NCBI GenBank assembly: GCA_018302545.1
Contig: JAGVZM010000003.1
Span: forward strand, 40,058-104,057
Reading direction: 5' to 3'
Source: Candidatus Woesearchaeota archaeon
GTDB lineage: Archaea > Nanobdellota > Nanobdellia > SCGC-AAA011-G17 > GW2011-AR18
DNA length: 64,000 nucleotides
This document shows, piece by piece, positions 1,395 through 55,535 of this stretch. The first letter of the stretch is position 1, and each line of letters opens with the position of its first letter. The position numbers and the translations under genes are program-made. The notes under the pieces were generated by a model that worked only from the letters and a program-made list of their open reading frames with translations, searched no databases and was not told the origin of the DNA.

Positions 1395-2345
1395 TTGAAA
1401 ATTAAGATGAAAAAAATAACAAATACTGTATTTATAATTTTGTTTCTTGTAATATTCACTATACCTATATTTGCTGAGGATTCTATCAATAACGAATTTT
1501 CTAATGACTGTCTTACAGTAAAAGGAGGAGACGGTTCTTATTGGCTATGTGAGAGAGGTGTATTCTTGCACAATAAAAAAATGGCATTTATAGTTGAAGA
1601 AATTTCAGAAGACATAGTTAAAATAAGAGTAGATGATTCAAAAATTAGAATTAGTTTTACTAATACCTCAGAATTTGGACAAGAATCAAAGTTCGATTAT
1701 ATTGATGTAAAATATAAAATAACCTTTGAAGGTCTTGATAATAACAATACAAAAGTAAGACTAACTATAAATTCAATTACAGGAAAAGAATTAAAACAAA
1801 ATCTGCAAGTTCAAGAATGTAAACCTGGAGAAAGACGTTGTATTGATACAGCTGGAAATTTGAAGTATTCCCAACAAAATACTCAAGGATATTATGGGAT
1901 GCATAAAATATGTTGTGGTGATAATTCAAATTATGATTATAGTCCTGTTTGTGGAGATTTAAGTGGAGTTTGGAAAGATTGGCAACCCGTACCATCCTGT
2001 TCAGAAAATAAAGAAAAAACATCTAACCAAGAAGAAAAAGATGAAGAAAAACAAACAAAAGAATCAAATTCTAAAAAAATAGAAGAAAAATGTAATGGTT
2101 GTAAACAAAATGAAGTTTGCCTTCCAATAGGAACAAGATTAACTGAAGAAAATAAACCAAGATATTGCGATATTGACTTAAATATAAAAGAACAAAAAAC
2201 AAACAGTCAAAATTGCCAAAATAATTACGAATGTTCAACAAATCAATGTAGTAATAATGAGTGTGTAAATCTAACAGAAGAATTAAAAGAAACAAGAAGT
2301 CTTATACAAAAATTATTTGACTTATTAAGTAAGATTTTCGGTTAA
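1395..2345 (+). CDS. Secreted cysteine-rich protein of unknown function, with signal peptide
   Basis: N-terminal hydrophobic signal. Many Cys in CxxC and C-x-C arrangements and a K/E-rich linker. Confidence 0.5.
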   Translation: MKIKMKKITNTVFIILFLVIFTIPIFAEDSINNEFSNDCLTVKGGDGSYWLCERGVFLHNKKMAFIVEEISEDIVKIRVDDSKIRISFTNTSEFGQESKFDYIDVKYKITFEGLDNNNTKVRLTINSITGKELKQNLQVQECKPGERRCIDTAGNLKYSQQNTQGYYGMHKICCGDNSNYDYSPVCGDLSGVWKDWQPVPSCSENKEKTSNQEEKDEEKQTKESNSKKIEEKCNGCKQNEVCLPIGTRLTEENKPRYCDIDLNIKEQKTNSQNCQNNYECSTNQCSNNECVNLTEELKETRSLIQKLFDLLSKIFG

Positions 2346-2354
2346 ATTATATCT

Positions 2355-3700
2355 TCTAGTTCGCAATAACACTCTACTCCTTTAGGTCTGAGTGAATTGC
2401 GAAAATATATTCTCCAATATGTCTCTTATAGAACAATGGTGGACGACACGACAAGGGATACGCGCGTAGAACTTATAAACTAAAATTCCTAAATAATTCT
2501 AATGTTAAAAACTTACAAATTCAGAATATATCCAAACAAAAAACAAGAGATAAAACTATTAGAAACTCTAAATCTTTGTAGGTTCACCTACAATAAACAA
2601 TTAGAACTAAAGATAAACAAATATAAAGAAAATAAAGTAAATTTAACACAATTTGATCTAAATAATAACTTAATAATACTAAAAGAAGAAAATAAAGAAT
2701 TAAAACAAATTCATTCTCAAACATTACAAGATATAAATAAAAGAATTAGTTTAGCTTTTAATGGATTTTACAGAAGATTAAATAAAAGAGAACAAGTAGG
2801 TTTTCCTAGATTCAAAAGTAAATATAGATATGATTCAATAACATATCCTCAATCTGGATTCAAATTAGAAAATCAGCTTTATATTTCTAAAATAGGACAA
2901 ATAAATATTATTAAACACAGAGAAATAGAAGGTAAAGTTAAAACCTTAACAATTAAGAAAACTTCTACAAACAAATGGTTTGCATGTTTCTCAGTAGAAC
3001 AAGAAAGTAAGAGTCACTCTAATCTAACAAATGAAGAAACAATTGGAATAGATCTAGGAATAAATCACTTTTATGCAGATTCTAATGGAAATCTAGTAGA
3101 TAATCCAAAATATCTAAGAAAATCAGAGTTAAAGTTAAAGAAATTACAAAGAAAACATTCTAAAAAGTTAAAAGGTTCTAATAATAGAAATAAATCTAGA
3201 TTAAAACTAGCTAATCTACATGAATTAATAAGTAATCAAAGAAATGACTTCTTACATAAACAATCAAGACAATTAGTTAATAATTATAATACAATAGTAG
3301 TAGAAAGATTACAAATAAGTAATATGACTAAAAACCACTATTTAGCTAAATCTATAAATGATGCTTCTTGGAATAAGTTTCTACAACTACTTTCTTACAA
3401 AGTGGAAGAGACTGGTGGAAAGTTAGTAGAAATAGATCCAAGAAATACTAGTCAATTATGTATTTGTGGCAATAAAGTAGAAAAATCATTAGCTACTAGA
3501 GTGCATAGATGCAATAATTGTGGAATAGAAATGGATAGAGATCTTATGTCTGCTTTGATTATTAAGGAAAAGGGAATAAATGATTTTAGTATTATTACCG
3601 TAGGAACTACGGGAATTCAAGCCTGTCAGAGAACTTCAATAGAAGTTCAGTGAAGCAGGACGCTCGGTCCCTTTAGGGCCGAGTAGTTCACATAAAAAGA
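2355..3700 (+). mobile_element. IS200/IS605-family insertion sequence, TnpB-only (IS1341-like), about 1.35 kb
   Basis: Left-end hairpin TTCGCAAT(2360-2367)...ATTGCGAA(2396-2403). Right-end hairpin CTCGGTCCCTTTAGGGCCGAG (3663-3683). Both ends share the motif CCTTTAGGnCnGAGT. The ends are GC-richer than the background. Confidence 0.65.
2502..3653 (+). CDS. tnpB: TnpB (OrfB), RNA-guided nuclease of IS200/IS605 family
   Basis: N-terminal YKFRIYPNKKQ motif. RuvC-like segments (IGIDLGI, VVERLQIS). C-terminal zinc finger CICG...CNNCG. Confidence 0.85.
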   Translation: MLKTYKFRIYPNKKQEIKLLETLNLCRFTYNKQLELKINKYKENKVNLTQFDLNNNLIILKEENKELKQIHSQTLQDINKRISLAFNGFYRRLNKREQVGFPRFKSKYRYDSITYPQSGFKLENQLYISKIGQINIIKHREIEGKVKTLTIKKTSTNKWFACFSVEQESKSHSNLTNEETIGIDLGINHFYADSNGNLVDNPKYLRKSELKLKKLQRKHSKKLKGSNNRNKSRLKLANLHELISNQRNDFLHKQSRQLVNNYNTIVVERLQISNMTKNHYLAKSINDASWNKFLQLLSYKVEETGGKLVEIDPRNTSQLCICGNKVEKSLATRVHRCNNCGIEMDRDLMSALIIKEKGINDFSIITVGTTGIQACQRTSIEVQ

Positions 3701-3710
3701 TAAATACTTA
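3500..3710 (+). ncRNA. Candidate omega-RNA (reRNA) overlapping the tnpB 3' end and the right-end hairpin. The guide would extend into flanking DNA.
   Basis: Inferred from known TnpB/omega-RNA architecture. Right-end hairpin at 3663-3683. Confidence 0.3.
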
Positions 3711-3736
3711 AGTAGTAATTATATATTTGAAATTAT

Positions 3737-4300
3737 ATGAGTATATTTACTAAAAACAAGGTGGTTATAGTCCACGGTTGTACTTCTGATAAAAATGATT
3801 TAACTTTTAATAAACATTGGATGCCCTGGCTTAAAAAAGAATTAGAAAAATTAAATTTTAAAGTTAAAATACCTAAAATGCCAGAAACTTGGAAGCCAAA
3901 CTATAATAAATTCAAAAAAGAATTTGAAAAGAATAAAATAGATGAAGATACTATATTAATTGGACATAGTTGTGGCTGCGCTTTTATAGTTCGTTGGCTT
4001 GGAGAAACAAAACAAAAAATTAAGAAATTAATATTAATTGCCCCTTGGAAAATTTATGATAAGGATGACAAAATCAGAAAAGAATTTTATAATTATAAGA
4101 TTGACGAAAATATAAAAAAGAGAGTTAAAGAAATTATAATGTTTACTTCTAATAATGAGGAAGAAGATGGCAAAAAAAGCCTAAAGATCTTTCAAAAAGA
4201 GTTAGGCGGTAAAATTATAGAACTAAAAAATAAAGGGCACTATGCATTTGAAGATATGGGTTCAGAGGAATTTCCAGAATTATTAAAAGAGATTATATAA
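3737..4300 (+). CDS. alpha/beta-hydrolase, YdeN/RBBP9-like serine esterase
   Basis: GHSCG nucleophile elbow (GxSxG), about 187 aa. Confidence 0.5.
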   Translation: MSIFTKNKVVIVHGCTSDKNDLTFNKHWMPWLKKELEKLNFKVKIPKMPETWKPNYNKFKKEFEKNKIDEDTILIGHSCGCAFIVRWLGETKQKIKKLILIAPWKIYDKDDKIRKEFYNYKIDENIKKRVKEIIMFTSNNEEEDGKKSLKIFQKELGGKIIELKNKGHYAFEDMGSEEFPELLKEII

Positions 4301-11595: not shown

Positions 11596-11681
11596 AGCCT
11601 CTGACGGGATTTGAACCCGCGATCTCCGCCTATTTAGACTATTTTACCAAGGCGATGCTCTACCAACTAAGCCACAGAGGC
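11596..11681 (-). tRNA. tRNA-Thr(GGU) with 13-nt intron at position 37/38. No encoded CCA.
   Basis: Manual fold gives acceptor GCCUCUG/CAGAGGC, D-arm with G18G19, anticodon stem UCGCC/GGCGG, loop UUGGUA|A, T-arm GCGGG-UUCAAAU-CCCGU and discriminator U. Confidence 0.85.
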
Positions 11682-54530: not shown

Positions 54531-55535
54531 TTAACTACTAACAGCTTGACTCGCTATAGCAGAAGCAAAACTCGAAGGAATTGAGAATCCTATACCTTCA
54601 GAATTTCCTACTTTATATGTGTTTATTCCAACAATTTGTTTTTTATTATTTATCAAAGGACCACCAGAATTTCCAGGATTAATTGCAACATCTGTTTGTA
54701 TGTATCCAACACCACTACTATCTATATTTCTATTTAAAGCACTAATTATTCCTTCTGTAACTGTAAAACTTAAACCTAAAGGATTACCAACAGCAATAAC
54801 TCTTTCACCAACTTTAATGTCAGAAGAACTAGCAAAACTTAAAGCACTAAAACCACTACTAGAACTTATTTTTAGAACAGCTAAGTCAGCATTACTAGCA
54901 ACACCAATTAAAGTAGCACTATAACTATTGCCATTATAATCAATTGCCTGTATGCTACTTACCCCTTCTATAACATGTTTATTTGTCATTATATAGCCTT
55001 GAGAATTAAAAATAACACCGCTCCCTTGCCCTTTATTCGTTCTTATACTTACAACAGACCTAATTACCTCATCAACTATAGAAGAAAAATCAGCACTACT
55101 AACTTGAATACTAGAAATTTGAGTTTCTAATTCAGAATTTTTTTTATTCAAATTACTAACTTGTCCAGAAACAGACTCTAATCCTTCTTGAGTAGCCTCT
55201 GTAGCACCTCTAACACTATTTAAATCCAGTTTTAATTTGGAAGTTTCAGAATTTAAATTATCTTGTAATGTTTTAAAATTTTTATTTGTTTTTTCTTCTA
55301 TTGCTTTTCTCTGATTAGTACTAAATTCTCTTTCTTCATCTATCTTATTTAATAACTTACTCTCCGTATCATTTAGTTCAGAATCTAAATTATCTAACTT
55401 ACCACCAAGACTACTTATCTGACTTTTATAATCAGTTTTCAATGAATTATAAGTTACATAATTTGTACCAATTAAAATTATTAAGAAAACAAATCCAAAC
55501 AACATTAAATCTGTAAATCTCAAATCAGTTCGCAT
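54531..55535 (-). CDS. Membrane-anchored trypsin-like serine protease (S1C/HtrA-like, no PDZ domain)
   Basis: Catalytic TNKHV (His), DLAVLKI (Asp), GNSGGP (Ser). N-terminal TM and coiled coil. Confidence 0.7.
   Translation of the reverse strand: MRTDLRFTDLMLFGFVFLIILIGTNYVTYNSLKTDYKSQISSLGGKLDNLDSELNDTESKLLNKIDEEREFSTNQRKAIEEKTNKNFKTLQDNLNSETSKLKLDLNSVRGATEATQEGLESVSGQVSNLNKKNSELETQISSIQVSSADFSSIVDEVIRSVVSIRTNKGQGSGVIFNSQGYIMTNKHVIEGVSSIQAIDYNGNSYSATLIGVASNADLAVLKISSSSGFSALSFASSSDIKVGERVIAVGNPLGLSFTVTEGIISALNRNIDSSGVGYIQTDVAINPGNSGGPLINNKKQIVGINTYKVGNSEGIGFSIPSSFASAIASQAVSS

Follow-up and report, generated by a model that had tools for sequence, protein, structure and literature searches.

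Identity and Extent of the Element

Does the lone tnpB gene in a 64,000-nt stretch of contig JAGVZM010000003.1 (below, the window) belong to an intact transposon supplying its own guide RNA, and where does such a transposon begin and end? The host is Candidatus Woesearchaeota (DPANN), in line with the AT-rich archaeon that the first-pass annotation of the window had surmised; a 186-kb contig carries the identical protein, annotated as a transposase. We assign the locus, with a probability of roughly 85%, to a tnpB-only (IS1341-type), non-autonomous and intact-looking insertion sequence of the IS200/IS605 family, approximately 1.34 kb in length (2351–3691). The kind is already well known, TnpB with its own guide RNA and without a transposase; what is new is this member. 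Four features can be read directly from the DNA: the nuclease gene is intact, a conserved structured RNA stops at the element boundary, hairpins at both ends match, and TnpA is absent from the 64 kb.

The membership in the IS200/IS605 family is seen at the ends. Both carry subterminal imperfect palindromes that are alike and lie on the same strand (2360–2403 on the left and 3662–3684 on the right). Terminal inverted repeats are lacking: the outermost bases read ATCTTCTAG on the left and GTAGTTCAC on the right, neither being the inverse of the other. The IS1341 type is defined by tnpB in the absence of a Y1 (HUH) tnpA. All six-frame open reading frames (ORFs) of the window were searched for Y1 TnpA with tblastn, using a Pfam-verified Y1_Tnp protein from one related locus (L106), and with a hidden Markov model (HMM) built from 17 TnpA sequences; none was found in the 64 kb, the best match having E = 0.17.

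The first-pass annotation had proposed a stand-alone TnpB element of the IS200/IS605 type at 2355–3710, without TnpA, within a GC-richer insert, and had considered it a candidate RNA-guided nuclease. The element type is borne out by Pfam and NCBIfam matches, paired end hairpins and the TnpA-free window, and the nuclease reading is supported by the intact catalytic triad, the conserved RNA and the matched ends. The two observations that it had named as speaking against such a nuclease, inactivating substitutions in the RuvC D-E-D residues and the lack of a conserved 3′ RNA structure, are not made here: the triad is intact and conserved, and the structure is conserved among relatives with strong covariation. 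The bounds had to be revised, as the right end was set too far and the left one imprecisely; the element most likely spans 2351–3691. The proposed GC-richer insert is not borne out: GC contents are 27.4% for the element, 27.1% for positions 2355–3710 and 29.1% for the whole window, and 73% of equal-sized windows are at least as GC-rich as 2355–3710. GC-richness is confined to the element ends, reaching 48% at 3592–3691 (top 0.16% of 100-nt windows) and 57% at 2436–2470.

TnpB Protein

The tnpB gene (2502–3653, plus strand, stop codon at 3651–3653) encodes a predicted RNA-guided endonuclease of 383 aa, the length given in the first-pass annotation, and no ORF of at least 50 aa is present on the opposite strand inside the region. 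Three TnpB Pfam domains score above their gathering thresholds: HTH_OrfB_IS605 (PF12323), OrfB_IS605 (PF01385) and Cas12f1-like_TNB (PF07282). The NCBIfam model guided_TnpB (NF040570) matches residues 5–356 with 305.4 bits against the cutoff of 100, while the exception-level model IS200_TnpB (NF038281) yields 307 bits, below its cutoff of 425; judged by these profiles, the protein is a member of the broad TnpB family, outside the narrowly defined NF038281 group.

Among natural proteins of solved structure, ISDra2 TnpB (8exa/8h1j; E = 3e-52, residues 3–358) is the best match, and the roles of its catalytic and zinc residues have been described (PMC10097598). Alignment with ISDra2 D191/E278/D361 yields the RuvC triad D184 (3051–3053), E268 (3303–3305) and D347 (3540–3542). 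In a 42-sequence family alignment (A1), E268 and D347 never vary, and at least 90% of sequences keep D184. Cysteines 320, 322, 337 and 340 align with the ISDra2 zinc ligands Cys 331, 334, 351 and 354 and form the predicted four-Cys TNB zinc finger, also conserved in the family alignment. The first knuckle, Cys320-Ile-Cys322 (3459–3467), is of the CxC type, as opposed to the canonical CxxC of ISDra2 TnpB and Cas12f. Every relative at 60% identity or more has CxC, as do some distant ones, and most proteins at 30–50% identity have CxxC.

The same searches bear on whether the protein could be a small Cas12f-like effector of a type V CRISPR system, or a TnpB of the IS607 type, rather than an IS200/IS605 one. 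Weak HMM similarity to Cas12f2, C2c8 and IS607_TnpB is observed (59.7, 99.5 and 133.8 bits, respectively), and Cas12f structures are found among distant PDB matches; these scores, however, lie far under the respective cutoffs (450, 350 and 350), ISDra2 TnpB is the best solved relative, the window contains neither a CRISPR repeat-family match nor a CRISPR-like repeat array, and the end hairpins are of the IS605 type, with the scaffold derived from the right end. We consider this identity extremely improbable. The features shared with Cas12f (type V-F) are the core of RuvC and the TNB zinc finger and, as predicted here, the guide–pseudoknot–stem core of the RNA (PMC10097598). The Woesearchaeota element has neither a CRISPR array nor a tracrRNA in the window, and its predicted guide is fixed by the transposon flank.

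Right End, Predicted Omega-RNA Scaffold and Guide

The 3′ regions of relatives align up to a conserved hairpin and the following (G)TAGTTCAC (terminus GTAGTTCAC, with variants GCTTCAC and GTCAC) and are unrelated directly after it. As the similarity stops past this tail, the element end is placed at 3691 and the guide start at 3692; the conserved 3′ tail AGTTCAC (3685–3691) comprises the last nucleotides of the scaffold and marks the right boundary.

Immediately upstream of the tail and on the same strand, consensus folding with RNAalifold reveals four helices: P1 (3598–3603/3607–3612), P2 (3622–3626/3655–3659), P3 (3631–3637/3642–3648) and P4 (3662–3671/3676–3684). Together with the tail they form a predicted omega-RNA scaffold core of about 100 nt (3592–3691), lying mostly inside the 3′ end of tnpB. 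No conserved helices are seen upstream of P1 in a 180-nt alignment, so the conserved core is limited to approximately 100 nt. The conserved C-terminal peptide TVGTxGIxAC is explained by P1, which encodes it.

A covariance model of the scaffold (R1), built from 13 sequences, was used to search 100 sources (the window and 99 related loci). In the window it has a single match, at 3592–3691, with 91 bits. Overall, 54 matches are observed in 53 of the 100 sources, on the tnpB strand and at or overlapping its 3′ end, with one exception, the second match in L133, which is weak (24.5 bits, E = 0.0017) and lies about 1.1 kb downstream of the L133 tnpB. In the alignment of matches, 94.3% of cells are paired and compensatory changes are seen in 23 of the 24 pairs, including all 9 pairs of P4, compared to 39–48% of paired cells in controls where the 3′ partners were slid by 1–3 columns. 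This alignment is fitted to the model and leans towards the structure; the RNAalifold consensus folds, made on MAFFT alignments of 13 and 16 relatives independently of the covariance-model alignment, give the same helices.

P4 coincides with the subterminal hairpin of the right end (3662–3684, bulged at T3668), presumably the hairpin recognized there by TnpA. The bulged hairpin CTCGGTCCCTTTAGGGCCGAG itself, at 3663–3683, is markedly stable as DNA (z = –5.08, none of 200 shuffles as stable). The two ends share the 15-mer CCTTTAGGnCnGAGT, which occurs exactly twice in the window, at 2379–2393 and 3670–3684. With up to two mismatches there are four matches against 0.77 expected; the two inexact ones, at 694–708 and 54768–54782, were set aside as being at chance level.

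The predicted guide, ATAAAAAGATAAATAC (3692–3707, plus strand), is 16 nt of flanking DNA and could extend to approximately 3711. Its placement follows from the right-end boundary at 3691 and from the precedent of ISDra2, where a guide of about 16 nt is taken from the flank (PMC8612924). The only exact match to this sequence in the window is the guide itself, and matches with three mismatches are at chance level.

The first-pass annotation had noticed both the bulged right-end hairpin and the motif shared by the two ends, and its guide position, around 3690–3710, was right within 2 nt. Its placement of the scaffold immediately downstream of tnpB was imprecise, most of the scaffold being inside the ORF. 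It had also suggested a comparison with known omega-RNA covariance models: no omega-RNA or sotRNA (sense overlapping transcript RNA) family of Rfam matches the region 2200–3900 at E up to 10, nor the whole window at gathering scores. The four weak Rfam matches obtained in 2200–3900 at E up to 10 were dismissed as noise.

The loop of P1 may form a pseudoknot with the tail, as GAA (G3604–A3606) is complementary to UUC (U3687–C3689, that is, –5 to –3 from the guide). Such pairing is plausible given the combinations seen in the R1 matches, GAA:UUC in 37 rows (36 with GGAA loops and one with CGAA), GGA:UUC in ten, and GGC:GCC, GAC:GUC and GGC:GUC in one row each, with one weak match having a mismatch. 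The variation is small, comprising three compensatory and ten wobble-compatible cases and the single mismatch. One more pairing, a closing helix between GTGAA (3650–3654) and TTCAC (3687–3691), was suggested by the single-sequence DNA fold and rejected in favor of the P1-loop pseudoknot: both sides are near-invariant, the existing variants (GTCAC tails; TGCA in L019) are not compensated, and RNAalifold never predicts it. In ISDra2, an analogous predicted pairing has been shown to be wrong, a 5′ pseudoknot being used instead (PMC10097598).

Left End, Candidate Target Motif and Putative Promoter

The non-coding left end (2351–2501, plus strand) comprises a spacer, a nested hairpin, a GC-rich box and the putative tnpB promoter. 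The nested hairpin (2360–2403), presumed to be recognized by TnpA on the transposed strand, has the outer stem TTCGCAAT/ATTGCGAA (2360–2367/2396–2403), already noted in the first-pass annotation, and an inner imperfect hairpin CACTC..CCtttaGG..GAGTG (2370–2394) that resembles the right-end hairpin. Its DNA fold has –11 kcal/mol and z = –5.65, with none of 200 shuffles as stable. The left end of the element encoding P0004 (locus L166) is homologous from TTCGCAA on, starting at or just before position 2360, and carries the same imperfect inner hairpin.

Left ends of relatives were detected with the guidance of the right-end hairpin, which replaced an automated nested-hairpin finder that proved too noisy. 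The family layout is a TTTAT, TTTAC or TTTAA motif, 6–12 nt, an arm of the outer stem, (g)aaa, the inner hairpin, (A/G)TGAA, and the other arm of the outer stem. A motif TTTA[ATC] or [AT]TTAT starting 22–32 nt 5′ of the hairpin core is present in 22 of 37 related loci, with 2.5 expected (binomial P ~4e-17); L166, the closest left-end homolog, has TTTAT at this position. In the window, the candidate motif is ATTAT (2346–2350, core TTAT), 27 nt before the hairpin core and directly after the TAA stop codon (2343–2345) of the upstream gene. Since ATTAT is located at the distance typical for the family, we most likely have the left boundary at 2351, just past it, and TTAT/TTTAY as the probable transposon-associated motif (TAM); the start of the left end could fall anywhere in 2351–2360. 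The sequences on either side of the element, AAATTAT and ATAAAAAG, show no duplication.

Between the hairpin and the gene lies a GC-rich box, TGGACGACACGACAAGG...ACGCGCG (2440–2466, plus strand), with tandem (G/C)GACA half-sites spaced by 8–9 nt. It is conserved in an alignment of 13 relatives (A6) with TnpB identity of 52–100%, and our guess is that it could serve as a promoter-proximal operator. Just downstream is an archaeal TATA-box-like sequence TTATAAA (2473–2479), centered approximately 26 nt upstream of the ATG; each of the 13 aligned relatives has T(T)TATAAA equally far from its start codon. By analogy with archaeal promoters in general, we read it as a TATA box, and its distance from the ATG suggests a leaderless tnpB mRNA. 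A pairing between the GC-rich box and the right-end hairpin (AAGGGA/TCCCTT) was considered and rejected by inspection, as it is not kept in L164.

Relatives, Copy Number and the Missing Transposase

About 190 related loci were fetched, and the anatomy given above draws on comparison with about 160. The nearest other proteins are 70% identical, and the named ones belong mostly to Woesearchaeota and Nanoarchaeota, with Patescibacteria at about 50%. Among the latter, proteins P0090, P0103 and P0109 of the Candidate Phyla Radiation, 49–50% identical and included in alignment A1, have the CxC knuckle; this hints that the element family may have been exchanged between archaeal and bacterial episymbionts of the same groundwater habitats. 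Only one other near-identical protein, P0121, is seen; it was rejected as a second insertion site, since over 9.65 kb its surroundings are 99.98% identical and thus represent this locus in another sample, adding no independent information.

The closest relatives are each single-copy, occupy a fixed place between housekeeping genes and have no TnpA within 3 kb. Of 189 related loci, 24 have a Y1_Tnp gene adjoining tnpB; among them are L118 and L119, whose RNA and ends follow the design seen in the window element. The hairpins of the left and right ends co-vary between elements: L166 shares both of them, and L164 has a different left hairpin matched to its own right end. Such matching within elements and difference between them is predicted if a cognate TnpA recognizes both ends.

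In L180 (~1240–1277) and L185 (~3200–3234), and also in L175 (4158–4180), TnpB, P1–P3 and the GAGCTTCAC tail are kept and no right-end hairpin is recognizable, and in the P0009 element a convergent neighboring gene ends only 22 nt past the tnpB stop codon. Such copies look immobilized, yet keep the nuclease and RNA module.

Several points weigh against an intact mobile element. Mobility would be marked by several copies or by polymorphic sites, and the window holds one copy, with the same locus in the second sample, thus showing no sign of recent movement; the search for additional copies proposed in the first-pass annotation revealed neither a second TnpB nor a second copy of either end in the window. 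The inner left-end hairpin has three mismatches to the right-end one. In place of TTTAT or TTTAC, which are commoner, the window has the motif ATTAT, and its spacer to the outer stem is 9 nt, compared to 6 nt in L166; both the left boundary and the TAM are drawn from relatives. The first zinc knuckle departs from the canonical form, with metal binding being a prediction, and the RNA, its 5′ end and the length of the guide are predictions as well.

Some of these observations would fit a stranded fossil, that is, an immobile element whose nuclease and RNA module is unused and not yet visibly damaged. The lack of TnpA, the single copy at one locus in both samples, the similar state of the closest relatives, the loss of the right-end hairpin in some relatives (L180, L185) and the imperfect inner hairpin all agree with it. 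On the other hand, the ORF is full-length with all catalytic and zinc residues kept, neither the tail nor any of the four RNA helices is damaged, the locus scoring 91 bits against the family model, and the promoter elements are conserved. Moreover, the imperfect left-end hairpin is conserved in L166 and is therefore a feature rather than decay. We consider a fossil unlikely.

The fixed positions of single-copy, TnpA-less elements between housekeeping genes across the DPANN clade, as well as the conserved promoter-proximal box, suggestive of regulated expression, could also be explained by domestication, with TnpB serving the host, e.g., as an RNA-guided regulator or a defense nuclease, and no longer being part of a transposon. 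In known domesticated regulators (TldR), RuvC is inactivated. Here, unlike in these nuclease-dead derivatives, the triad is intact and both transposon ends are present with matched hairpins; besides, the predicted guide is local flanking intergenic DNA that differs in every relative, and within the window no further target for it is seen. Domestication appears highly unlikely to us, and the non-autonomous insertion sequence remains the preferred reading.

Proposed Mechanism

For this insertion sequence we propose the following sequence of events, in which the steps from transcription to reinstatement are modeled on ISDra2. A leaderless tnpB transcript would start from the TATA box at 2473–2479 and run through the right end into the flank, and its 3′ part would yield the omega-RNA, consisting of the scaffold (3592–3691) and, starting at 3692, some 16 nt of guide. 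The complex of TnpB and omega-RNA would recognize TTAT/TTTAY followed by a match to the guide, which is the excision joint TTAT|ATAAAAAGATAAATAC; the predicted sequence of the empty site is ...GGTTAAATTAT|ATAAAAAGATAAATAC... Cleavage of this joint by TnpB might then lead to recombination with an occupied sister copy, restoring the element. Such a homing or retention model has been proposed for ISDra2 (Karvelis et al., 2021; PMC8612924). For transposition elsewhere, a Y1 TnpA would have to act in trans, recognizing the two hairpins and inserting the element 3′ of a TTAT-like target.

Comparison With Known Systems

The best-studied counterpart, the TnpB–omega-RNA (reRNA, right-end element RNA) of ISDra2 from Deinococcus radiodurans (PDB 8exa, 8h1j; PMC8612924, PMC10097598), belongs to the same protein family and has the same domain order, with the RuvC triad and a four-Cys zinc finger. 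Also common, although predicted for the Woesearchaeota element, are the origin of the guide RNA in the 3′ end of tnpB together with the right end, the guide itself coming from the flank; a four-stem scaffold with a candidate pseudoknot using positions –5 to –3 beside the guide; and a candidate target motif 5′ of the left end. The scaffold core is approximately 100 nt, compared to 116 nt in ISDra2; in the candidate pseudoknot the tail would pair with the hairpin loop of P1, at –88 to –86, whereas the partner in ISDra2 lies at –105 to –103; the probable TAM is TTAT/TTTAY instead of TTGAT; and the first zinc knuckle is CxC instead of CxxC. Unlike ISDra2, the element has no adjacent TnpA, has a putative archaeal promoter, resides in an AT-rich host and is known from its sequence alone.

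Archaeal IS1341-type elements with sotRNAs/omega-RNAs, known from Halobacterium salinarum (PMC4615843, PMC12558985), have the same tnpB-only plan, and a non-coding RNA overlapping the tnpB 3′ end in sense is predicted here as well. The Woesearchaeota element differs from them in its lineage (DPANN) and in its sequence family, with no match to the sotRNA families RF02656 and RF02657 even at E up to 10. Full IS605-type relatives with both tnpA and tnpB (L118, L119, L139, L005, L100), whose TnpB proteins are 46–50% identical, have the same omega-RNA architecture, the GTAGTTCAC terminus and a nested left end after TTTAA or TTTAT; in these relatives Y1_Tnp is directly upstream of tnpB, and in the window element it is absent.

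The element adds a well-delimited DPANN pair of TnpB and predicted omega-RNA to a very large known family, supplying a protein of 383 aa, a scaffold of roughly 100 nt, a TAM predicted to be of the TTAT type and a guide whose start is defined. As a compact nuclease it is a candidate for use on AT-rich targets, and its clade gains an RNA model backed by covariation; the understanding of how TnpB systems work is unchanged. A mild question is raised, why elements with intact nuclease, RNA and ends, yet single-copy and lacking TnpA, persist in streamlined DPANN genomes. A doubtful answer would be that the clade (relatives with at least ~53% identity, the named ones mostly from Woesearchaeota and Nanoarchaeota) constitutes a distinct compact lineage of obligate mobile element-guided activity (OMEGA) systems, single-copy and TnpA-less in reduced episymbiont genomes, and kept by RNA-guided homing alone or by host use. 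The marks of such a lineage could be the scaffold of about 100 nt with the hairpin-loop pseudoknot, the CxC knuckle, the AT-rich TTAT-type TAM and the tandem GGACA operator in the left end.

Neighboring Observations

The element lies between the genes for a secreted protein of 316 aa and a Ser_hydrolase. Only 45 nt separate its end from the start codon of the latter, co-oriented gene (3737–4300), and read-through from tnpB or the omega-RNA could affect the expression of this gene. On the other side of the element, the GC content peaks at about 41% at 751–1200 (the genome has 29% GC), over an ORF encoding a membrane protein of 171 aa (728–1243), whose counterpart in L189 is annotated as DUF2975. 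Farther downstream, Rfam identifies a tRNA on the minus strand at 11596–11681 (60 bits), with a span of 86 nt compared to the 71 positions of the model, and ARAGORN reports none; this may be an intron-containing archaeal tRNA.

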